From contig QZJO01000007.1 of NCBI GenBank assembly GCA_003599755.1, positions 41,221 through 105,220 of the forward strand: a stretch of DNA of 64,000 nucleotides, in the 5' to 3' direction. Below, piece after piece: positions 3,241 through 49,771 of the stretch. This DNA comes from Candidatus Parcubacteria bacterium. Its GTDB lineage: Bacteria; Patescibacteriota; Minisyncoccia; Sungbacterales; SURF-37. Each line of letters opens with the position of its first letter. The first letter of the stretch is position 1. Under the pieces are notes generated by a model that searched no databases, was not told the origin of the DNA, and was given only the letters and a program-made list of their open reading frames with translations. The position numbers and the translations under genes were made by a program.

Positions 3241-3269
3241 ATTCAGCCAACCACGCGGGTTGGCTAAAT
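3241..3269. repeat. hairpin repeat, copy 1 (attcagccaacc-N5-ggttggctaaat), left edge of the AT-rich island
   Basis: 25/29 identical to copy 2 at 5322-5350; forms an 8-bp stem followed by a T-rich tract. Confidence 0.5.
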
Positions 3270-3303
3270 TTATTTATGCAGTATTCTCAAAATAGTTCGA
3301 ACG

Positions 3304-3370
3304 GTTTTCGCCGCCGCTTTCGGCGCCGAAATGGAAAGCCCCCGCCCGCGCGCGGCTCCGCCGCGCCGAT
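3304..3370. repeat. left 67-bp terminal inverted repeat (GC-rich)
   Basis: Exact reverse complement of 4445-4511 (67/67 by manual alignment); contains the internal palindrome tttcggcgccgaaa. Confidence 0.7.
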
Positions 3371-3469
3371 GACAATTTCAAGTTTTTAATCGAGTTAATC
3401 ATAACTCGATTTATCAAATTTTTCAAATAAGGGATGGTTGAAAAATTTGATGCTTTGGCGGCAAATTCT

Positions 3470-3520
3470 TTTACAAAAAATCAGGCCCACCGTTCGCATT
3501 GCGCTACTAGGTGGGCCCAG
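3470..3520 (-). terminator. rho-independent terminator of the cassette gene
   Basis: Minus-strand hairpin aggcccacc/ggtgggccc followed by a T-run (plus-strand aaaaaa at 3475-3480) just 3' of the stop at 3545. Confidence 0.5.
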
Positions 3521-3544
3521 AACTGCTTCAGTCGCGGCGTGTCA

Positions 3545-4147
3545 CTAGGCTTCGGCGGCCTTGAGCACCGTCGTGGTGTCCCGCTTTCGCAACCGCCGGA
3601 TGACGGCCAGCGTGCGGGTCGCGATCGCGCCGAGGGCACCCGGCCCGCTCGACGCATCCATGGTCAGATGCCGACCGAACGCGACACCGAACGCGGCGGC
3701 GAGAGCGGACGTGATAACGTGACCGATCATCGCCTGTTGGGTCATGGTGACCTTGAAGATGAGGAATGTGAGCGCATCGCCCAGCGTCTTGTGCAGGTAG
3801 TCGTCGGGGCCGTAGTGGCCGAGCGCGAGGGTGTGCACGGCGCTGAAAAACAGAGGAACGATCACAGCGCCGAGACCGCCAGCGATGACGAATGAGCTGA
3901 ACACGCCGACTCCCCATCGGTGTCGGAGCGTGACGGCGAGCGTCACCACTGCCCCGATGCCGATGGCATGGATGAGCCACTCGAGAGCGGTGACCGGCAC
4001 CCTCAGATCGTAGAAGCGGATGATCCAGTTGGCGCCGAAGCTCTCGTTCGGCAGACGGGTGGCGAATGAGGCGTAGAGCGTCGCACCGATCTGCGCGAGC
4101 GCCAAGCACACCAGTGCCGTGATGGCGAACGCGATCTTCTTCTGCAT
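3545..4147 (-). CDS. hypothetical integral membrane protein (200 aa, ~5 TM helices)
   Basis: Strong SD AAAGGAGG 6 nt upstream of the ATG (rare in this window); hydrophobic throughout; own terminator; no family recognised. Confidence 0.55.
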   Translation of the reverse strand: MQKKIAFAITALVCLALAQIGATLYASFATRLPNESFGANWIIRFYDLRVPVTALEWLIHAIGIGAVVTLAVTLRHRWGVGVFSSFVIAGGLGAVIVPLFFSAVHTLALGHYGPDDYLHKTLGDALTFLIFKVTMTQQAMIGHVITSALAAAFGVAFGRHLTMDASSGPGALGAIATRTLAVIRRLRKRDTTTVLKAAEA

Positions 4148-4444
4148 GTGAGCCTCCTTTTGTTCCTGCCTGCCTTTTGGTCAGGGCTTACGGAACGTAT
4201 GTGCCGCACCAGAATCTACGGCAACAAAGAAGAAACTAACCACTTAACACTCTCTTTGTTACCGTAGAATATAGCTTATTTAAAGTGCTAGTTTACTGCT
4301 TAAATAATAGCATATCTATATGAAAAAGTCAAATAGCAGCAAGCACCGCTACTTTGAAAGAAGCTCAATGATTAAAAATTCTTTTTTCGCAAAACCAAAT
4401 ATGGTTCGAGCCGATGTTTTTCTTCCGGTTCTTTGGCAGTTTTT

Positions 4445-4511
4445 ATCGGCGCGGCGGAGCCGCGCGCGGGCGGGGGCTTTCCATTTCGGCGCCGAAAGCG
4501 GCGGCGAAAAC
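4445..4511. repeat. right 67-bp terminal inverted repeat
   Basis: Reverse complement of 3304-3370. Confidence 0.7.
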
Positions 4512-5213
4512 GGGAATATCCACGAGTATGTCTATTACCACTGCACCAAGAAGTCAAAATTGAAATGTCCCGAACCTTGTATTCGCCAAGAAGAATTGGA
4601 TCGCCAGTTATCATCCCTTATTCAAAAATTTTCTTTGAGACCGGATTGGGCGGAAGAAATGCGGGGAATGTTGGAAAAAGAAAAATCGGAATCCGCCCAA
4701 TCCGCAACCGCTTTTGTTCAGGAAGCCGAAACCAAAATCCGCGCCATACAAACGAAGCTCCAGCGACTTCTTGATGGATATTTGGAGCAAGATATTGAGC
4801 GCGAAATTTACCGAACCGAGAAAGCAAAACTACTTTCCGAAAAGAAGTCGCTGGAAGAGCAAATGGCGCGGATTGAACAAAAGCGGACTGGCTGGCTCGA
4901 ACCGATGATGGAATGGATAAAAGAGGCAGAAAATCTGCCTGAAATCGCGCGGGAGAGCAACCTTTTTGCCAAAAAGGTTACCGTCAAAGAAATCTTTGGC
5001 TCGAACCTCGTCTTGGCCAACCGCGAGGCGCGCCTCACCGCGCCGAGCGGAGAGGATTTGTCGGGGGAATCCGTTTGGGCCGCGCTCCGCGCGGCCACCG
5101 AAATGGTCGGTCAAATTGCAAAAAGTCAGATTTTGGTGCGGTCAGCGGGAATCCAGCGCTGCGCGCCTAGAACCCGTCGCGGCACGCGTCTCCGCCTGCG
5201 GCGGATCCGCTAG
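4512..5213 (+). pseudogene. C-terminal fragment (~230 aa) of a large serine recombinase; catalytic, recombinase and most zinc-ribbon domains are missing
   Basis: ..YVYYHCTKKSKLKCPEPCIRQEELDRQL.. (end of recombinase zinc beta-ribbon), then the characteristic coiled-coil LQRLLDGYLEQDIEREIYRTEKAKLLSEKKSLEEQMARIEQ; homology begins exactly at the TIR boundary; the ORF-track N-terminus (MKKSNSS..GAESGGENGN) is read-through of AT-rich spacer and TIR; two stacked terminator hairpins follow (5223-5242, 5254-5275). Confidence 0.55.
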
Positions 5214-5284
5214 CACCGCTCTTTGAAACCTTGCGGTTTCAATTCTTCCACCACGGGGAAACTTTCGTTTCCCCGACCCCTTTC

Positions 5285-5311
5285 CCAGGTTCGATTCCCG
5301 GAACTGACGCA
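5285..5311 (+). repeat. inverted partial duplicate of the tRNA-Gly 3' end (T-arm and acceptor)
   Basis: ccaggttcgattcccggaactgacgca shares ggttcgattcccg and ctgac.gca with the 3' half of tRNA-Gly (5356-5385) but in opposite orientation; lies between the recombinase fragment and the tRNA. Confidence 0.45.
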
Positions 5312-5321
5312 CACAAAATGC

Positions 5322-5350
5322 ATTCAGCCAACCACAAGGGTTGACTGAAT
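5322..5350. repeat. hairpin repeat, copy 2 (attcagccaacc-N5-ggttgactgaat), right edge of the island
   Basis: 25/29 identical to 3241-3269. Confidence 0.5.
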
Positions 5351-5355
5351 GTATG

Positions 5356-5426
5356 TATGCGGTCAGCGGGAATCGAACCCGCGTCTCGTCCTTGGCAAGG
5401 ACGCGTTCTACCACTAAACAATGACC
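5356..5426 (-). tRNA. tRNA-Gly (GCC)
   Basis: Cloverleaf GCGGTCA..TTGCCAA..GGTTCGATTCC..TGACCGC-A; anticodon loop uuGCCaa. Confidence 0.85.
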
Positions 5427-5455
5427 GCTTTAAATCTTCTGCCGGAAACCCGGCC

Positions 5456-34709: not shown

Positions 34710-36977
34710 ATGACTCTGTCTAACTCTAGAAAACGAAGGCAGATTGAAATACTCCTTGTCGTATTGATACTTGTTGTGCTTATTGCAGGAATTTACGCGC
34801 CGCCTGCATTCGCGCAAACAACAAAACAGCTTGGACAAATGGGTATACAGGTGCCCGGCGGCGGATCATCGGCGCCACCGCCCGACGTCTTCAGCTGCTC
34901 CTGGTGGTCACACGGCTTCGCGTGCGGCGCGTATCGAATACTGGACTCGCTGAGCGACTTTGTTACTTCATACTTCGTTCGGCTCGCGGCATATATATTT
35001 GATACGTTCCTCCGCTTCGCACTTTTGGACATCAGCCAGACCACGATCGTCAAGGTGGGAAGCTCGATTGCAGTAGCCACGGCAAATTTATTCTTCATCC
35101 TCATTCTCCTTTGGATCGCCATTGCCACGATCTTCGATTGGGCGGATTATTCGGCACGCCAACTTTTGCCGAAACTCATCATCATCGCACTCCTCATCAA
35201 CTTCAGCGTGGCTATCGGCGCGACTATCATCAATCTTTCCAACGGCATCGCGCGCACGTTTTACTGCGTCATCGCGGGAACTTCCACGCTTTGCCCAGCT
35301 AACCCGGGCGGTGACAGCAAATCCATAAGCGAAAACTTTGCCGATATTTCAAAATTCAGATCAGTCGCCGTCATAACGCGGGAGGACTTACCGCCCCCCC
35401 AAGGTACTCCAACGAGCAGCGAAAACGAATTAAAAGGCGCATTCATAGCTATTTTTGCTAAGATGCTACTCGCTCCCGTGCTCATTTTCACACTCCTGGC
35501 CGGTGCGTTTTTCATCCTCGCTCGGCAAATCGCGCTTATGTTCGTGCTCATCCTGAGCCCGCTCGCGTTTTTCTTTTATATATTGCCAGGCACGCGCGGC
35601 ATGAATAGCAGATGGTGGTCCGCGCTCTTCAAATGGAGTTTTTTCCTGCCGGCGTACCTCTTTTTCATCATGCTCACCATTAAGACGGGCGGGGCCATGT
35701 TGACGGCCATCCAAGCAAATCCGAATGATCCCGCATCGGGCACGTTCACTTTATGGATGCAATATCTCGTGCTTATCGGATTGATGATCGGCTCGCTCAT
35801 TGTATCCAATCAGCTTTCCATCTATGGCGCCGGCGCGGTGACGAACCTTGGAAAACGCTGGAGCAAGGGCGCTGGGAAACGCGTAGGATGGAAAGTGGGC
35901 AGCCTTGCTGCGCGCGGAGCTCTCCGCACGCCGGGCGTACGTCAAGCAGTAGGAAGAACTCCGGGACTTAAATATGCCGCGGCACTTGCCATTCAAAAAG
36001 ACGCCGCATATGCCAAGAAAAGGGCGGACTTCTACGCCAAACTGCCTGATGCACAACTTGCTCGCATGCTGCACACGATGAATCCAGGCATTCGACAGCA
36101 AGTATGGAACTCCCTCAAAGAAAGCCGCAGACAAACATTGCGCGGCATCGCACCGGATCTTGATCAATATGTTACCTCGCCAACATTCGGCCAGCGGATC
36201 CGTTCGAGTATCCTCGGACAGCCGGCAACGCCAGCGCAACAAGCCGCGCAGCGAGCTCTCCAGGAGCGTAATAACCGAATTGTCGCTGCGGCCATCACGC
36301 ATTTGCCGCAGAACATCCGAACGGCTGTTGAAGCAGGCATGCGCGAAGCCATGCAAAGCCTTCCGGAGAATGTAACCGTCGCTCAGGCCGTGGGCGCTGC
36401 GGAAGCATCGGCTCTTGAGGCAGCTCGCCGCGCATTTCCCGATTCTCCGGAAGTGGAAGAACGCATTCGTGAAGAATTCCGACGCCAGCAGGATGCTATC
36501 CGCGCCAGCGTAGAAACAGCCATGCATCCCGAGCGTCCGGCACGCAACGAGGCCATCTATACGCAGGTTGCGCCGCTCATCATGCAGCACCCGGCTATCC
36601 AAAATCTGCCAAACGACGTCCGCATTTCCGTTTCGCTCGCCGTGGAACGTTCTATCCGCGCCCTTCCCGCCAATGCAACACCGGAGATGGCAGCAGCCGC
36701 GATCGAGCAGGCGGTTCAGAGCGCCGTAGCCGCGCAGCCGCCTGCGCTCCGGCAAGCCGGAGAAGACGCGGTTCGCGCAACGCGCGAACAGATGGATCGA
36801 ATCCGTCAGGCAATCAACACCGCGCTGCGGACATTCCAAGAAAGCCAGCGCGCACGCTCCACAACCCCGCGTCCTAGACAGGCGCCCGCTGACTACGTTG
36901 CGGCTTACGAAGAACGTATTGAGGATCTCGAAAGCCGACTCGGCGGCCTCGAGGAGCGACAAGAAGGCGCTTCATGA
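34710..36977 (+). CDS. VirB6/TrbL-like polytopic membrane protein with a long hydrophilic C-terminal extension
   Basis: Signal peptide, ~8 TM helices in the first 400 aa, then a ~350-aa Ala/Arg/Gln-rich helical tail; size and topology resemble Gram-positive VirB6 analogues. Confidence 0.45.
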   Translation: MTLSNSRKRRQIEILLVVLILVVLIAGIYAPPAFAQTTKQLGQMGIQVPGGGSSAPPPDVFSCSWWSHGFACGAYRILDSLSDFVTSYFVRLAAYIFDTFLRFALLDISQTTIVKVGSSIAVATANLFFILILLWIAIATIFDWADYSARQLLPKLIIIALLINFSVAIGATIINLSNGIARTFYCVIAGTSTLCPANPGGDSKSISENFADISKFRSVAVITREDLPPPQGTPTSSENELKGAFIAIFAKMLLAPVLIFTLLAGAFFILARQIALMFVLILSPLAFFFYILPGTRGMNSRWWSALFKWSFFLPAYLFFIMLTIKTGGAMLTAIQANPNDPASGTFTLWMQYLVLIGLMIGSLIVSNQLSIYGAGAVTNLGKRWSKGAGKRVGWKVGSLAARGALRTPGVRQAVGRTPGLKYAAALAIQKDAAYAKKRADFYAKLPDAQLARMLHTMNPGIRQQVWNSLKESRRQTLRGIAPDLDQYVTSPTFGQRIRSSILGQPATPAQQAAQRALQERNNRIVAAAITHLPQNIRTAVEAGMREAMQSLPENVTVAQAVGAAEASALEAARRAFPDSPEVEERIREEFRRQQDAIRASVETAMHPERPARNEAIYTQVAPLIMQHPAIQNLPNDVRISVSLAVERSIRALPANATPEMAAAAIEQAVQSAVAAQPPALRQAGEDAVRATREQMDRIRQAINTALRTFQESQRARSTTPRPRQAPADYVAAYEERIEDLESRLGGLEERQEGAS

Positions 36978-38509
36978 GCATACATATCGGAGAACAACTT
37001 TCTCTGTGGGAGCGGACATTACCGGATGAAATCCGGGATATTGTTTCCTCCATGCCCCTTGAAGCCGCAATTACTACGATTAGCCAGCGCTATCAATTCT
37101 CGCCCGAAATGACATCGGCCTTAGTAACGGAGATCGGCGGTTTCGTGACCGGCACGACATCGGCCCGCGAATTTCTCTCTCACCTGATTGAGCTTAACCA
37201 TGGAGACACGCACGCGACCACTGCATTCACCCGCCTGCTCCTCGCAGAAATTTTGATTCCCCTGCGCACTGCAATGCGTCAACGCCTTGTGCGCCAAGGC
37301 CCCAAGCCCTGGGGGGCGAAGTCACTTACAAAAGCGCCCCCACCCCACGTGGCGCCGCCAGCTGTTGCCCCGCCGAAGCCCGCAACCCCTCCGTCGCCAG
37401 CTCGAATTCCTCCGCCCCCGCCACCCCCACTGGCGCCGCAGCCCGCCGCCCCCGCGCCGCGGCCGATTATCATGCCGCCGGTCGGCGCCGCGCCCCATGC
37501 AGCGGCCGACCCCACCGAGGAAACCATCACCAAATATTATCGCGACCTGCCGCCCGTGGTGCGCGATGCCATGCGTGGCATTCCGATCACCCGGATCCTG
37601 TACGACATCGGCCGCGAGCACCAGTTGACCGTTGAACAAACCGGCAAGATGGCCGACGCGGTCATGCAGTTTGTCGCCGGCAAAGCGAATCAAGACGCAT
37701 TCTTGGACACACTCCTTGATATCTTCGGCGGCTTCCGCCAGAAATCCGCGGCCGCATCACAGGAAATCAATACCAAGATTTTTTCACCGATCCGCAAAGC
37801 GCTCAAAACCACGACGCTCGAATCGCTGCATGCCGAACCGCCGACAAAGTCCGCGCCGGCAGCTGCCAAGCCCGGAGAACCGTCCGTACCGACGGCGTCT
37901 CCCGCGCCTCATCCCAAACCGTCTCCTTCGACGGATTCGACCCCTTCGACGGGCTCAGGGCAAACACGCTCACCAGAAGCAAGCTTCCCTCGGCCCGAGC
38001 TCGGGACGAAGGCAGGGCAAGCGCCGCCGGTCGTGCCCGCCCGCCCGGCGGTACCACCGATTCCACCGCCGCCTGCGGTGAGTCGCGTCGAACCACCGAC
38101 CGCGCCGTCGCCAGCGCCAAAACTCCAAACCCCGCCTCCCGCAACACCCAAGCCGTCTGCCCCGAGCCGAGTCGAGGGGCCGCGCGAGCCCGAGCCGTGG
38201 ATCATCTATCCTTTGCGTACGCCGACGCCGCGGCCGGTTTCTCCGTCTGATACAGAAACTCCTGCCGCGCCCGCCCCGCAGCCGGCCGCATCCCCGCAAC
38301 CGCCGACGCCGCCTTCGCCCCCGGCGTCTCCGAGCCCGGTGCCGCCTTCGACGGGCTCAGGGCAAACACGCTCACCAGAAGCAAGCTTCCCTCGGCCTGA
38401 GCTCGGGACGAAAGCAGGGCAAGCGCCGCCGAATTTGCCGACCGCGCCCGGTCGCGCGCCCATGCCGCATCGGGACAATGATCCGTATCGGGAAAAACCC
38501 GGCGCCTAA
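36974..38509 (+). CDS. proline-rich repeat protein
   Basis: ATGA overlap with the upstream gene; PxP-rich; contains two near-identical 29-aa repeats PSTGSGQTRSPEASFPRPELGTKAGQAPP. Confidence 0.45.
   Translation: MSIHIGEQLSLWERTLPDEIRDIVSSMPLEAAITTISQRYQFSPEMTSALVTEIGGFVTGTTSAREFLSHLIELNHGDTHATTAFTRLLLAEILIPLRTAMRQRLVRQGPKPWGAKSLTKAPPPHVAPPAVAPPKPATPPSPARIPPPPPPPLAPQPAAPAPRPIIMPPVGAAPHAAADPTEETITKYYRDLPPVVRDAMRGIPITRILYDIGREHQLTVEQTGKMADAVMQFVAGKANQDAFLDTLLDIFGGFRQKSAAASQEINTKIFSPIRKALKTTTLESLHAEPPTKSAPAAAKPGEPSVPTASPAPHPKPSPSTDSTPSTGSGQTRSPEASFPRPELGTKAGQAPPVVPARPAVPPIPPPPAVSRVEPPTAPSPAPKLQTPPPATPKPSAPSRVEGPREPEPWIIYPLRTPTPRPVSPSDTETPAAPAPQPAASPQPPTPPSPPASPSPVPPSTGSGQTRSPEASFPRPELGTKAGQAPPNLPTAPGRAPMPHRDNDPYREKPGA
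37943..38029 (+). repeat. 87-bp direct repeat, copy 1 (within the proline-rich gene)
   Basis: 85/87 identical to 38345-38431. Confidence 0.6.
38345..38431 (+). repeat. 87-bp direct repeat, copy 2
   Basis: 85/87 identical to 37943-38029; both in frame. Confidence 0.6.
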
Positions 38510-39743: not shown

Positions 39744-41558
39744 ATGGAATTCCCATCCCTCTTCGGAAAGAAAACCCAACCGGTCGAGGATCTGGCGCCC
39801 GTAGCGCCGGAGCAGATTTACCGCACCGGCGCGGCCACATTGCGCGACGTTATCGCTCCCGCGGCCCTCGAGGTCAATCCGAGCTTTATCCGCCTGGGCG
39901 AGAAATTCGTCCGGACCCTTTTCGTATTCTCGTATCCGCGGTATCTGGCGACCAACTGGTTCTCGCCGATCATCAATCTCGACAAGGTATTCGACATCAC
40001 GTTTTTCATCCATCCGGTGGATACGGCCATCGTTATGCGGCAACTCCGCAAACAGGTGGCGCGCGTGCAATCTCAGATCGCGATGCGCGAAGAAAAAGGG
40101 CAGGTGCGCGATCCACTCCTGGAAACCGCATATCAAGACCTCGAAGATCTGCGCGACCGCCTGCAGCAAGCGCGGGAACGCCTCTTCAATTTCGGCCTTT
40201 ATATTTCGCTCTACGCTTCCAAGGTAGAGGAGCTCGACCGATTGGAGAACGAAATGCGCGCGCTCTTAGAGGCCCGATTGGTCTACGTCAAACCTGCGCT
40301 GTTCCAGCAGGCCGAGGCCTTCCGATCATGCGTGCCGCTCGATACCGACGAGCTGCAGATCAGCACCTACCTCAATTCAGGGCCGGTATCGAGCACGTTT
40401 CCGTTCGTATCGTTCGACCTTACGTCCAACAAGGGGATTCTCTACGGCGTCAACCGCCACAACAACTCGCTCATCCTCTTCGATCGTTGGTCATTACCCA
40501 ATGCCAATTCCGTAACGTTCGCGACGTCCGGTGCGGGCAAAAGCTACGCGATGAAACTCGAGGTTTTACGCTCGCTGATGTTCGGCGTGCACGTCATCAT
40601 CATCGACCCCGAACGCGAATACCAGTATCTGGCCGAAGTGGTCGGCGGAGCGTACTTCAACATCTCGCTGACTTCGCCGAACCACATCAATCCGTTCGAT
40701 CTGCCCGTGCCCCGCGAAGACGAATCGCCGGCCGACGTGCTTCGTTCCAATATCATCAATTTGGTCGGATTTTTCCGGATTCTGCTCGGCGGCCTGACCC
40801 CCGAAGAAGACGCGCTTTTGGACCGCGCCATCACCGAAACATACGCCGCGCGCGACATCACGGCCGAATCCGACTTCGGCGCGATCACGCCGCCCACGCT
40901 TTCGGACCTCGCGCTCGTGGTCGCGAGCACCCAAGGAGGCGAACAGATCGCGACGCGCATCAAGAAATATACCGAGGGCACTTGGTCCGGGTTCTTGAAC
41001 CAGCAGACGAATCTCGATATCCAAAACCGCCTCGTGGTCTTTTCCGTGCGGGATATGGAAGAGGAATTGCGGCCGGTCGCGATGTATATCGTACTCCACT
41101 ACATCTGGAACATCGTGCGCACCGATCTCAAGAAGCGGCTCCTGGTCGTGGACGAGGCCTGGTGGCTCATGCGCACCGAGGACGGCGCATCATTCCTCTA
41201 CGGCATCGCCAAGCGCGCCCGCAAATACTTCCTCGGCCTCGCGACGATCACGCAGGACGTCGCCGATTTCATGGATTCGCCCTACGGCAAGCCGATCGTG
41301 ACGAACTCCTCGCTGCAGCTATTGCTTAAGCAATCACCGGCCACGATCCAGAAAGTCGTCGAGACGTTCAACCTGACCGAAGAAGAAAAATTCCTGCTGT
41401 TGGAATCCGAGGTAGGGGAAGGGATCTTTTTCGCCGGCCTCAAGCACGTAGCGATTAAAATTATCGCGTCCTACAGCGAAGACCAGGTCATCACGTCCGA
41501 CCCGCAGCAATTGATGCTCATCAAAAAGGCGCGCGAAGAATTCGATCAGAAACAATAA
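39744..41558 (+). CDS. VirB4/TrbE/CagE-family conjugal-transfer ATPase (C-terminal 604 aa)
   Basis: RTLFVFSYPRYLATNWFSPII.., Walker A FATSGAGKSYAMKLEV, Walker B LLVVDEAWWLM. Confidence 0.7.
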   Translation: MEFPSLFGKKTQPVEDLAPVAPEQIYRTGAATLRDVIAPAALEVNPSFIRLGEKFVRTLFVFSYPRYLATNWFSPIINLDKVFDITFFIHPVDTAIVMRQLRKQVARVQSQIAMREEKGQVRDPLLETAYQDLEDLRDRLQQARERLFNFGLYISLYASKVEELDRLENEMRALLEARLVYVKPALFQQAEAFRSCVPLDTDELQISTYLNSGPVSSTFPFVSFDLTSNKGILYGVNRHNNSLILFDRWSLPNANSVTFATSGAGKSYAMKLEVLRSLMFGVHVIIIDPEREYQYLAEVVGGAYFNISLTSPNHINPFDLPVPREDESPADVLRSNIINLVGFFRILLGGLTPEEDALLDRAITETYAARDITAESDFGAITPPTLSDLALVVASTQGGEQIATRIKKYTEGTWSGFLNQQTNLDIQNRLVVFSVRDMEEELRPVAMYIVLHYIWNIVRTDLKKRLLVVDEAWWLMRTEDGASFLYGIAKRARKYFLGLATITQDVADFMDSPYGKPIVTNSSLQLLLKQSPATIQKVVETFNLTEEEKFLLLESEVGEGIFFAGLKHVAIKIIASYSEDQVITSDPQQLMLIKKAREEFDQKQ

Positions 41559-47085: not shown

Positions 47086-48471
47086 ATGAATCGAGAGGAT
47101 ATCTGGAAAAGCGTTCTCGCGGAACTCGAGCTCACCATCTCGCGCGCGAGCTTTATTACATGGTTCCGGGAGACGTCGATCGCCGACATGAACGACGGCG
47201 TGGTTACTGTGTCGGTCCCGAACGGATTCGCCAAAAGCTGGCTGCAGGACAAATACCATAAATCCATCGTCCGGGCGCTCCGCGGACTCGCCACTGACAT
47301 ACGGGAGGTGCAATACGTCGTTGGCGCGATCGATCGCCCAATGCCCGTCCTGCGGCCGAAACCCGTGCGGTTTTTCCCGCGCCCCGACGTATCGGATATC
47401 CCTCAGGATCGCCTGGAACTGCGGGATACCGTGGTAGATCCCGAAAGCGGCCTCAACCCGCGCTATACGTTCGAACATTTCATCGTCGGCTCGTTCAATG
47501 AGCTGGCGCATGCCGCCGCGCAAGCGGTGGTACAGAATCCGGGAGGCGCGGGCTACAATCCGCTCTTTATCTATGGAGGCGTAGGACTTGGCAAAACGCA
47601 CCTCATTCAGGCCATCGGCAATGAATTTCTCAAACAGAACCCCGGCCGCCGGGTCCGCTACATGCCGTCTGAGCGCTACATGGGCGAGGTGGTGGAAGCG
47701 CTGACGTCCAAGACCATGAATGACCTCAAAGAGCGCTACCGCGCCGTGGATGTCCTCATCATCGATGACATCCAATTCATCGCGCGTACGGAAAAAATGC
47801 AGGAAGAATTCTTCCATTTATTCAACTCCCTGTACGAGCGCAACAAACAGATCATCATTTCTTCCGATAAGCCGCCAGCCGCCATTCCGACGCTCGAAAA
47901 CCGCTTGCGTTCGCGTTTTGAGGGCGGACAGCTGGCTGATGTCGGATCCCCGGATATCGAAACGCGCCTCGCGATTCTGCAAACCAAGCTCAAAACGCGC
48001 AATGTAGCGTTCTCAGAAGACGTCATACGGTGCATCGCCGAGACCATCTCGACCAATATCCGTGATCTTGAAGGAGCGCTGAACCGTATTATTCTGCGTT
48101 CGTCGATGTCGAATGCGCCGATTGATGCCGAAGAAGCCAAGCGCATTCTCAACCAAGTGGTCTCGGCTCCGCGGCGATTTACATCGTATAAAAAGATCAT
48201 CCGCGCGGTCGCGGAATTCTATGACGTATCAGAAAAAGACCTTATCAATCGCAGTCGGAGAAAAGAGATCGTAAAACCCCGCCAAATCGCCATGTACCTC
48301 ATGCGGGATGAACTAAAATGTTCGTTTCCGTTCATTGGGGAGAAGCTCGGGAAAAAAGATCATACCACCGCCATCCACGCGTTTAAAAAAATCATGAACG
48401 ACCTTACCGTCGACCCCACGCTTGAGGTAGAGCTGAAATCAGTGCGAGAAAAAATTTATACTAACCCTTGA
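47086..48471 (+). CDS. dnaA: chromosomal replication initiator DnaA
   Basis: Walker A GGVGLGKTHLIQAIGNEF, sensor and box VII regions, C-terminal HTH (..HTTAIHAFKKI); 461 aa. Confidence 0.95.
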   Translation: MNREDIWKSVLAELELTISRASFITWFRETSIADMNDGVVTVSVPNGFAKSWLQDKYHKSIVRALRGLATDIREVQYVVGAIDRPMPVLRPKPVRFFPRPDVSDIPQDRLELRDTVVDPESGLNPRYTFEHFIVGSFNELAHAAAQAVVQNPGGAGYNPLFIYGGVGLGKTHLIQAIGNEFLKQNPGRRVRYMPSERYMGEVVEALTSKTMNDLKERYRAVDVLIIDDIQFIARTEKMQEEFFHLFNSLYERNKQIIISSDKPPAAIPTLENRLRSRFEGGQLADVGSPDIETRLAILQTKLKTRNVAFSEDVIRCIAETISTNIRDLEGALNRIILRSSMSNAPIDAEEAKRILNQVVSAPRRFTSYKKIIRAVAEFYDVSEKDLINRSRRKEIVKPRQIAMYLMRDELKCSFPFIGEKLGKKDHTTAIHAFKKIMNDLTVDPTLEVELKSVREKIYTNP

Positions 48472-48676
48472 GTTACTTGGGGAAAACACGGTGACGGTTG
48501 ATGATATAAATTCTTACAGAAAAATTCTTCTCCTCTCTATCCCCGCAGCCGTCCACACCCTATACCATAGCTGCAACGCTTTAAAACCCGCGCGCCATCT
48601 ATCCAATCCATCGCTATCCCGATATTATTCATCCCTAACAACCACAACAATAAAATTATATACGTACGGTATTGTT
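48472..48676. other. candidate oriC segment II (dnaA-dnaN intergenic)
   Basis: 205-bp AT-rich spacer with several degenerate DnaA boxes (cTATCCAAt, cTATCCCGa, gTCCACA) and an AT-rich tract aacaataaaattatatacgta. Confidence 0.35.
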
Positions 48677-49771
48677 ATGAAATTTACTTCTACGCTTGAA
48701 CACCTCAAAAACGCCGTACAAACCGTTGAGCGATTCAGTGGGCGCCATATCACGTTGCCAATTCTTGCGCATATTCTTATCGTGGTAAAAGAGCGGGGCA
48801 TCGCATTACGCGCGACGAATCTTGAAATGGGGATTGAATATACTATTCCGGGAAAAACACTAAAGGTCGGCGCTACTACCGTGCCCGCCCGATCGTTTTC
48901 ACAAATTCTTCAGTCCTTGCGTGATGATACGGTCACGCTGGAAGCGGAAAAGCAACACCTCGCCATTACTACGCAAAATACGAATGCGACGCTATTCGGC
49001 TTAAATGCCGATGAATTTCCCGTTTTGCCGGCGATTAAAGAGGAAACGAAATTTTCACTCGATACGATATTATTTACCGGCGCTCTGGAACGCATTATTC
49101 CCGCCGCGGCAACGTCTGATCTTAAACCCCAGCTCAACGGCGTATACCTGGCGGTTAAGCCGGGCACAATTACCCTTGCGGCAACCGACTCATTCCGGCT
49201 TGCGGAGCAGACGCTTGCCGTACCTGAGATCAAAGATACGAGCGTGGAATGTATCTTGCCGCTCCGCACCGCGCAGGAACTTTTGCATACGTTGCCCGCG
49301 GAAGGAACGCTCGCGATCGGCATCGGTGAACACCAGATTGTGTTTCGCGCGGGGAACGTAGAAATCGTTTCGCGTCTTATTGATGGCGCGTATCCGCCGT
49401 ATCGCGCTATTATCCCGAAAACCTATGAAACGAATACCGTCATCAAGCGCGACGACCTGATCCAGCGCATCCGGCTTGCCGCTATTTTTTCGAGCCGGCT
49501 GAATGAAGTGAGTTTAGAAGTAGGGCCCCAAGAGATCGCGGTCGCGACCTCGAACAGCGAAACGGGTTCGTCCACCACGCGGCTTGCCGCCAAAGGAAAG
49601 GGGAAGACCGGGTCGGTCCTGTTCAATCATCGGTATCTCGTCGACGGCTTAGCAGCGGCCGGCGGCGAGCACGTCACGCTGAACCTCAACGGTTCGGGCG
49701 GCGCGGCGCTGATCCAAAATCCGAATGACTCATCATTTCTCTATCTCTTGATGCCGATCCGCTCCGCCTAG
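48677..49771 (+). CDS. dnaN: DNA polymerase III beta sliding clamp
   Basis: MKFTSTLEHLKNAVQTVERF.. three-domain clamp, 365 aa from the internal ATG; ORF-track upstream extension is AT-rich spacer. Confidence 0.9.
   Translation: MKFTSTLEHLKNAVQTVERFSGRHITLPILAHILIVVKERGIALRATNLEMGIEYTIPGKTLKVGATTVPARSFSQILQSLRDDTVTLEAEKQHLAITTQNTNATLFGLNADEFPVLPAIKEETKFSLDTILFTGALERIIPAAATSDLKPQLNGVYLAVKPGTITLAATDSFRLAEQTLAVPEIKDTSVECILPLRTAQELLHTLPAEGTLAIGIGEHQIVFRAGNVEIVSRLIDGAYPPYRAIIPKTYETNTVIKRDDLIQRIRLAAIFSSRLNEVSLEVGPQEIAVATSNSETGSSTTRLAAKGKGKTGSVLFNHRYLVDGLAAAGGEHVTLNLNGSGGAALIQNPNDSSFLYLLMPIRSA

Follow-up and report, generated by a model that had tools for sequence, protein, structure and literature searches.

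A repeat-bounded membrane-protein gene beside a truncated large serine recombinase in a Candidatus Parcubacteria genome: possible cargo of a decayed tRNA-targeting island

Introduction

What is a 1.2-kb stretch of bacterial DNA that is closed at both ends by a long perfect inverted repeat, carries a single gene for a membrane protein, holds no transposase and adjoins a recombinase gene whose first half is missing? The question arises at positions 3304-4511 of a 64,000-nucleotide stretch of a Candidatus Parcubacteria genome (contig QZJO01000007.1, positions 41,221 to 105,220 of the forward strand; the whole stretch analysed is referred to below as the window), where a first-pass annotation, made from the letters alone, had proposed either a non-autonomous element with terminal inverted repeats (TIRs) mobilising a cargo gene or the remnant of an insertion sequence (IS) whose transposase had been lost. 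On comparison with the relatives of the neighbouring recombinase, we consider it somewhat probable that the region ~3266-5153 is a decayed, tRNA-targeting island of a large serine recombinase (LSR), in which the 1.2-kb cassette would be the cargo compartment.

Limits of the cassette and the recombinase fragment

The cassette and the recombinase sequence beside it comprise the following features:

3304..3370, + strand: left arm of a perfect 67-bp inverted repeat, GC-rich, with two internal hairpins
4445..4511, - strand: right arm of the perfect 67-bp inverted repeat, its outer end joined directly to recombinase codon ~302
4512..5153, + strand: C-terminal ~215-220 residues of an LSR (second half of the zinc ribbon, coiled coil and tail)

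The two arms are exact reverse complements (67/67), as the first-pass annotation had reported, and a repeat finder stretches the match to 72 nt at 97%. The pair is the sole long inverted repeat in the 64-kb window and by far the longest, and the 67-mer occurs there in only two copies at ≤3 mismatches (0 expected from shuffles). The hairpins of the left arm are formed by the palindrome TTTCGGCGCCGAAA and by GCGCGGC-TCC-GCCGCGC.

Recombinase homology is certain from 4512, immediately after the right arm as annotated, and is ambiguous for the last 3 nt of the arm (AAC), which may be recombinase-derived: the junction in the window reads GAAAAC/GGGAAT where the intact genes read AAGAAC/GGCAAT, so that the two share an AAC microhomology. 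The open reading frame (ORF) 4320-5213 reads through the right arm into the LSR sequence and matches only positions 19-54 of the Zn_ribbon_recom profile, from residue 64 (nt 4509). With no catalytic (resolvase) or recombinase domain and a beginning at ~residue 302, the window LSR is, as read from its DNA, a fragment whose catalytic half is gone and not a functional member of its family; the surviving part contains no stops and no frameshifts. The annotated truncation therefore stands, the gene being cut exactly at the right arm, but insertion of the cassette into the recombinase finds no evidence, because the left flank of the cassette is not recombinase sequence.

Copies of the repeat outside the window were sought with exact 20-25-mers and with the translated arm, the organism's own genome being covered by the window alone. 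No copy of the 67-bp ends was found in viral contigs (exact 24-25-mers), the 83 matches to the outer 20-mer of the arm in JGI metagenomes were all chance matches in unrelated GC-rich genes, and the translated arm, searched against 5.8 billion proteins, matched nothing beyond the contig of the window itself. No transposase is present in the cassette, as had been noted, nor among the 23 window ORFs of 290-604 aa that were scanned. No convincing target-site duplication was seen between the flanks, which end in TTCGAACG on the left and begin with GGGAATAT on the right; a 3-nt GAA flank match appears only when the repeat is extended with one mismatch. Among the fetched loci there was no empty site for, or close relative of, the left flank. 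What survives of the earlier proposal is thus a real, repeat-bounded single-gene cassette lacking a transposase, whereas the further TIR copies, the target-site duplication and the transposase that a TIR cargo element would be expected to bring were all not found, and an IS remnant with a lost transposase has no support. Integron cassettes, IS200/IS605 elements, casposons and hairpin telomeres were also considered and rejected, since a single attC-like site and HUH and Cas1 genes are lacking and the chromosome continues on either side.

Island architecture in the relatives of the recombinase

The surviving part of the recombinase has 662 protein relatives at E ≤ 1e-3, many of them 60-90% identical over ~215 aa, and 134 LSR loci were confirmed among GTDB species representatives, almost all of them in Patescibacteria. 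The intact LSR of locus L006 (7098-8672) has 524 aa and the Resolvase, Recombinase and Zn-ribbon domains (PF00239, PF07508 and PF13408), and the fragment in the window gave a weak NCBIfam match to CcrC.

The island family was defined from LSR loci L005-L084 (n = 80; for example L006 5338-8699, L008 1759-8699 and L039 2659-8699). In every locus examined the 3' end of the LSR gene overlaps the 3' end of a tRNA gene, the identity of the target tRNA varying (Arg, Val, Lys, Gly, Ile), and it is the tRNA T-arm that encodes the conserved protein tail ..G[IF]EP. In 46 of the 80 loci a 114-139-bp inverted repeat, mostly 93-100% identical, stands on either side of the LSR gene; its right copy (IR1-R) consists of the last ~45 codons of the gene and ends TTTTGGTG, the CCA end of the tRNA. 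A second inverted-repeat pair, around a 1.2-5.6 kb cargo directly upstream of the LSR module, is present in 13 of the 21 loci with at least 2.4 kb of upstream sequence, to which this count was restricted. The cargo repeats measure 150-315 bp (BLAST) and are 81-100% identical, with a shortest exact core of 119 nt, and the right cargo repeat abuts the left LSR repeat or overlaps it by 3-19 nt. Their outer ends bear a conserved pseudo-tRNA block that resembles a tRNA T-arm (..GTTCGAGCC..TGTAAAGACA-CACCA) and lies just outside the left LSR repeat in 32 of the 33 inspected loci that have this repeat, the exception being L044.

The order of an island is cargo repeat, cargo, inverted cargo repeat, core CACCA, LSR repeat, LSR gene, inverted LSR repeat, core and tRNA, and a short direct repeat of 3-19 nt, ending TGGTG, is found at both island ends. 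The internal junction, consisting of the pseudo-tRNA block, the core and the left LSR repeat, would accordingly correspond to an inverted copy of the junction at which the whole island circularises. In nearly all of the 33 loci whose flank is readable, the LSR points at a tRNA, either real or a remnant, and an XRE regulator often adjoins the right cargo repeat, on the same strand in 5/5 loci; this fixed orientation indicates that the repeats are not simply flip-flop switches. The cargo itself is diverse, including a Vut_1 transporter with a methyltransferase, ArsR with an ArsP permease, GMP synthase, restriction-modification genes and other membrane proteins. The cargo repeats are highly divergent among genuine islands and align poorly. 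Many contigs start inside the cargo repeat, which indicates that assemblies break there. No description of LSR islands in the Candidate Phyla Radiation (CPR) or Patescibacteria was found in the searchable full-text literature, absence from which is no proof of novelty.

Several further observations concern these relatives. In L033 a third, diverged inverted-repeat pair (4413-4538/8644-8784; 144 nt, 72%) surrounds both modules, which gives the island the look of a later insertion into an older island's remnant. The public annotation of P0007 is a 235-aa C-terminal ORF starting MMITGEY, where the DNA (L008 6963-8666) holds an intact LSR frame of 520-567 aa; many database LSR entries look truncated, from such annotation or from contigs ending in repeats, and a precomputed Resolvase domain accompanied 0 of the 120 best LSR matches. 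The LSR was also found, at 52-91% identity, on contigs binned as Syntrophaceae, Elusimicrobia, Gammaproteobacteria, Bdellovibrionales, Rhizobiaceae, Staphylococcaceae, Pseudomonadales and a Woesearchaeote (L014, L016, L017, L020, L025, L032, L038, L045, L064, L077 and L083), which are either mis-binned CPR contigs or cases of transfer beyond Patescibacteria.

The cassette as proposed cargo of a decayed island

The flanks of the cassette and the recombinase fragment hold the following features:

5001..5140, - strand: IR1-R, the right LSR-flanking repeat, with the same TTTTGGTG end (nhmmer E = 1.6e-35)
5137..5153, - strand: 17-nt copy of the tRNA-Gly 3' end, an attachment-site remnant, 100% identical to 5358-5374
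5154..5321, no strand assigned: GC-rich hairpins, then a tRNA-like 3' half on the + strand (5285-5312) and CACACAAAAT
5358..5428, - strand: intact tRNA-Gly(GCC), a chromosomal integration hot spot
3241..3265, + strand: host-type terminator hairpin (stem-loop 3245-3265), terminator-like on both repeat copies
3266..3303, no strand assigned: T-arm-like block (..CAAAATAGTTCGAACG) just outside the left arm, resembling the outer-end block of the island repeats

The cassette thus occupies the cargo position of an island, on the correct side of an LSR that ends at the 3' end of a tRNA gene, and cargo in the relatives often consists of membrane or transport proteins, as it does here. Like the cargo repeats, its ends form a long inverted repeat (67/67, compared with 150-315 nt at 81-100% in the relatives). 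At the left end of the cassette, read inward, the order of elements is colinear with that of the islands (T-arm, CCGAAAT, GC hairpin), the arm of locus L004, a relative of the cassette described below, shows ATCCGAAA at the same place, and the hairpin with the 7-bp stem GCGCGGC/GCCGCGC is also found in the arms of L006 and L043. The T-arm-like block at 3266-3303 aligned to L068 with z = 5.4 (0/500 shuffles), and the left flank gave a weak nhmmer match over 3255-3303 (E = 1.3 for 64 kb); the block is itself a dyad and aligns in both orientations.

We propose that the 67-bp arms would be the inner, hairpin-rich part of the cargo repeats of an island that the LSR once mobilised, and that one deletion of ~1.1 kb would have removed the outer pseudo-tRNA end of the right arm, the core, the left LSR repeat, which is absent from the window, and LSR codons 1-~301. 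The AAC microhomology at the junction would be typical of a simple deletion, and a single event of this kind would account together for the missing LSR head, the lack of a target duplication, the non-LSR left flank and the truncation in mid-domain. The truncation is probably recent, since the surviving LSR part is free of stops and frameshifts, which fits the still-perfect arms. Lacking the catalytic half of its recombinase and one attachment site, the island would no longer be mobile, while its cargo gene could still be expressed.

A number of findings weigh against this reading. The right arm lacks the T-arm block, the core and the left LSR repeat and is joined to LSR codon ~302, and the cassette is called a decayed copy because the deletion is taken to explain the missing outer end. 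The arms, at 67 bp (~100 bp with the outer block), are shorter than all of the cargo repeats observed in relatives, and hidden Markov models of the cargo repeats (nhmmer) do not retrieve them. Homology of the arms to cargo repeats by score was rejected: shuffles gave z of 4-5, but reversed and complement controls scored nearly as high, and the similarity of the GC-rich 67 bp, being no better than these controls, was treated as compositional. On average the left-hand T-arm block is matched slightly better in the opposite orientation, which would favour a replacement model, an extra T-arm-like motif (motif M, below) lies inside the right arm, and the cargo gene, its leader and the arms occur in 0/80 LSR loci. 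Given how far the cargo repeats of genuine islands diverge from one another, a weak similarity of the arms is to be expected, but it is no proof. We regard the link between the 67-bp arms and the cargo repeats as only moderately solid, and as weakly supported by the sequence. The arms were also compared with the LSR-flanking repeat, of which they might have been a diverged copy, and scored no better than shuffles.

On the tRNA side, the stretch 5154-5321 aligns to L053/L048, its hairpin resembling L033 8698-8744 by eye, and looks like the remnant of another island arm plus core, which suggests nested or tandem island remnants at the tRNA-Gly gene. A 42-nt direct repeat (83%) links 3241-3282 with 5322-5363, the right copy being the terminator just downstream of tRNA-Gly.

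The membrane-protein gene and its expression unit

Between the arms, the following features were recognised:

4403..4440, no strand assigned: motif M, T-arm-like GGTTCGAGCC plus ..GGTTCTTTGGCAG, just inside the right arm
4304..4332, - strand: sigma-70-type promoter TTGACT-17-TATTAT with extended -10, conserved in L001 and L004
4215..4268, - strand: dyad with a 20-bp stem at the transcript start (folding z = -5.9 against shuffles)
4148..4214, - strand: 5' leader of 67 nt, with the Shine-Dalgarno sequence AAAGGAGG at 4153-4160
3545..4147, - strand: membrane-protein gene, its 200-aa integral membrane product having an LRHRW motif and 4-5 predicted helices
3468..3517, - strand: intrinsic terminator of this gene, with an 18-nt loop on an 8-bp GC stem and then a T-run
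3389..3451, no strand assigned: AT-rich tail with two small hairpins (3389-3410; 3413-3426/3438-3451)

The 200-aa protein is identical to the annotated hypothetical protein C4552_01550 of a Candidatus Parcubacteria metagenome-assembled genome and matched no Pfam or NCBIfam family and no known fold. Its family is tiny, with 4 other clusters among 5.8 billion proteins and 25 relatives among 1.84 billion representatives.

The cargo appears to be a complete expression unit (promoter, leader, ribosome-binding site, gene and terminator) that can still be expressed. The terminator that had been annotated is confirmed by a GC stem, GGCCCACC/GGTGGGCC (3484-3517), read directly off the sequence, its 18-nt loop exceeding the range of the scan tool, and is kept in all five related loci; the second hairpin of the AT-rich tail is shared with L001, and the tail end AAAAACTTGAAAT is conserved in L001, L003 and L004. 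The dyad noted in the putative promoter region was likewise borne out, with the promoter itself reading from 4332 to 4304, and its 20-bp stem is present in L002, L003, L004 and L168 and absent in L001. As for the Shine-Dalgarno sequence, said to be the strongest in the window, AAAGGAGG is indeed the only such octamer there, but a single occurrence is about the chance expectation.

The leader is near invariant in five aligned sequences, namely the window and loci L001-L004 (L001 1022-1098, L002 212-285, L003 61-134 and L004 258-335), the coding sequence being ~70% identical among them, and by eye it is near-identical in L168 (~76-145). In the predicted fold, UUCC is paired with the GGAG of the ribosome-binding site; the variation is too small to show covariation. 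No Rfam covariance model matched the leader at E ≤ 10 apart from noise, a known riboswitch being rejected on this ground, and we regard the leader as a candidate new cis-regulatory RNA.

Relatives of the cassette and alternative explanations

The module of promoter, leader, gene, terminator and tail is also carried by small contigs of other groundwater-type metagenomes (L001-L004), with 70-76% nucleotide identity, and L168 looks similar by eye. The samples behind L004, L002/L003 and P0005 are SRR22388051, ERZ1292643 and SRR14366780. L004, obtained from an independent sample and its own assembly, can be aligned with the window at ~72% identity over a span that starts within one arm and stops within the other, and its ends, at the arm boundaries of the window, are inverted copies of each other. 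L002 begins 7 nt into the arm position, L003 ends 4 nt short of it, and the interior of the module is conserved right up to the arm boundaries. The agreement of these limits indicates that the cassette has been inherited as a unit and did not arise by local accident or as an artefact. The arms of L004 are strongly unlike those of the window and retain the same GC hairpin with a 7-bp stem. As to whether homologues of the protein are also flanked by repeats, which the first-pass annotation had asked, L004 is so flanked, and the cargo gene stands without such arms in L001 and in L169, a relative of 43% identity that lies in an ordinary gene array and has no promoter of its own.

Motif M lies upstream of the gene in the window (4403-4440) and in L004 (39-89; match at E = 1) and downstream of it in L001 (1879-1960) and L168 (1505-1531), so that the module appears circularly permuted; the motif was not found in viral contigs, and none of the 80 LSR loci holds motif M, the tail motif or the leader.

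That the cassette is an independent element of the mobile insertion cassette (MIC) type, a non-autonomous TIR element moved in trans by an unseen transposase, which landed in or next to the LSR gene, strikes us as rather unlikely. The class is an established one (PMC3913671, PMC2600179, PMC4337579), and perfect 67-bp terminal repeats around a cargo gene without a transposase would suit it, as would a second copy, ~28% diverged, with inverted ends at the same boundaries (L004), the contigs L002 and L003 that also stop within a few nt of those boundaries, and the occurrence of the gene elsewhere without arms (L001, L169). The left T-arm block also fits slightly better the + orientation that would be expected before an LSR module, in which case the cassette replaces exactly the LSR 5' region. 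However, the loss of the pseudo-tRNA tail, core and left LSR repeat, together with codons 1-301 of the LSR, must then be put down to an adjacent deletion or replacement, so that an insertion and a deletion are required, compared with one deletion for the island. The two known copies have strongly different ends, which sets these apart from transposase-binding ends; searches of the window, viral contigs, JGI metagenomes and protein space brought no further copy of the ends; the window ORFs of 290-604 aa that were scanned include no transposase; the only candidate target duplication is the 3-nt GAA with its one mismatch; and such an origin ignores that repeat-bounded cargo beside an LSR is the rule in the relatives.

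It is very improbable that the cassette is a gene-sized inverton, with the arms serving as invertase sites and flipping altering expression, for instance of short N-termini fused to the LSR fragment, even though the inverted repeats adjoin a serine-recombinase gene, ATG-started frames read into the LSR fragment at both ends (ORFs 4320-5213 and 3274-3426) and frequent flipping would keep the arms identical. The adjacent recombinase has no catalytic domain, the gene has its own promoter and terminator, so that flipping would not switch it, orientation is fixed in the intact relatives (the LSR toward the tRNA; XRE on the same strand in 5/5), and the open frames are short, AT-rich and not significant. 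A local palindromic rearrangement or an assembly artefact, which would deny the cassette any biological unity, is still less credible and already largely contradicted by L004: the source sequence is metagenome-assembled and the 67-mer is present in only two copies wherever it was searched, but the same module with inverted ends at the same boundaries recurs at ~72% identity in the independent sample and assembly of L004, its interior is conserved up to the arm boundaries, and long, near-perfect inverted repeats are regular in the island family across dozens of independent assemblies. The decayed LSR island is the origin that we prefer.

Some details of these relatives are recorded here in their own right. 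The 3-nt loop of the 7-bp-stem hairpin is inverted between the window (3304-3370) and L004 (1-33/1078-1088), reading TCC and GGA respectively relative to the gene, with the stems kept. Motif M is T-arm-like, with GCCAAAGAACC..AAAAACATCGGCTCGAACC, and the 27 nt before it in L001 include the island core TGGTG. L001 (782-862) also has, ahead of the promoter of the membrane gene, a pseudo-tRNA block (nhmmer E = 3e-4), and the CACTACAGAAC that comes after this block looks like the beginning of an LSR-flanking repeat; there the gene module occupies the usual place of the LSR. In L168 a small two-gene pair (1035-1475), the second member of which is by eye a RelE/ParE-type toxin-like gene, follows the membrane-protein gene, and the contig ends in motif M after this pair.

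Comparison with known systems

In staphylococci, the Ccr LSRs place staphylococcal cassette chromosome (SCC) and pseudo-SCC elements at the 3' end of one conserved gene (rlmH/orfX), a hot spot where cassettes with and without a recombinase lie side by side, the recombinase-less ones being mobilised in trans. With its putatively LSR-driven site-specific integration and its weak CcrC match, the island family would have its closest functional analogue here. It differs in that the target is the CCA end of many tRNA genes and not rlmH/orfX, in its 114-315-bp near-perfect inverted repeats in place of the short direct or inverted integration site sequence (ISS) repeats, in the position of the last ~45 LSR codons inside one repeat with the stop codon inside the tRNA, and in its Patescibacteria hosts.

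The closest formal analogues of the cassette are the MICs, which are non-autonomous transposons resembling miniature inverted-repeat transposable elements (MITEs), with terminal inverted repeats around one or more passenger genes and no transposase (PMC3913671, PMC2600179, PMC4337579); the cassette too consists of terminal repeats and a passenger gene without a transposase. The ends of MICs match a resident IS or Tn3-family element and are accompanied by target-site duplications, neither of which was found for the cassette, whose ends are 67 bp long, perfect and unlike between the two known copies.

The island family resembles classical tRNA-targeting islands and prophages in its integration at the tRNA 3' end, an integrase at the tRNA-side edge, short direct end repeats, variable cargo and decayed remnants at a hot spot. 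Classical tRNA islands, however, have tyrosine integrases and a copy of the tRNA 3' end, whereas the island family has an LSR and a conserved pseudo-tRNA block and keeps an internal inverted copy of the putative circularisation junction (attP). If circular, an island would also recall the yeast 2-micron plasmid, in that two unique arcs would be split by two long identical inverted repeats with the core; the plasmid uses a tyrosine and the island a serine recombinase, and the island has been seen integrated only, with fixed orientation and no flip-flop isomers.

Implications and further observations in the window

Taken alone, the cassette would be a dead remnant with a membrane protein of no known family, and of local interest only. 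The island family is of wider note, its LSR being 60-90% identical across many Patescibacteria classes, with many tRNA targets and nested repeats of 114-315 bp. If active, such islands could serve as a major channel for exchanging genes among organisms whose genomes are tiny and in which few mobile elements are known, could explain why many assemblies of these organisms break beside tRNA genes, and would offer natural LSRs with attachment sites readable from the genome, useful for genome engineering.

A broader possibility, which we advance tentatively and think doubtful, is that Patescibacteria widely carry undescribed LSR islands whose free form is a circle of two arcs, one with the recombinase and one with exchangeable cargo, so that single-gene cassettes could be swapped or captured. 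Integration at the CCA end of almost any tRNA would then open one of the two long inverted repeats that part the arcs and each hold the recombination core, and the other would stay inside as the inverted attP copy. If true, this would be a cassette system driven by a serine recombinase, and not by an integron integrase or a transposase.

Elsewhere in the window, an 87-nt direct repeat (37943-38029 and 38345-38431; 98%, 402 nt apart) sits in a 511-aa ORF (36974-38509) with no Pfam family. The stretches 39744-41558 and 47086-49771 were noted too: a TraG/VirB4-like P-loop ATPase stands amid several ORFs without a family, which suggests a type IV secretion or competence-like cluster, and the genes dnaA and dnaN are neighbours, in what is probably the replication-origin region.

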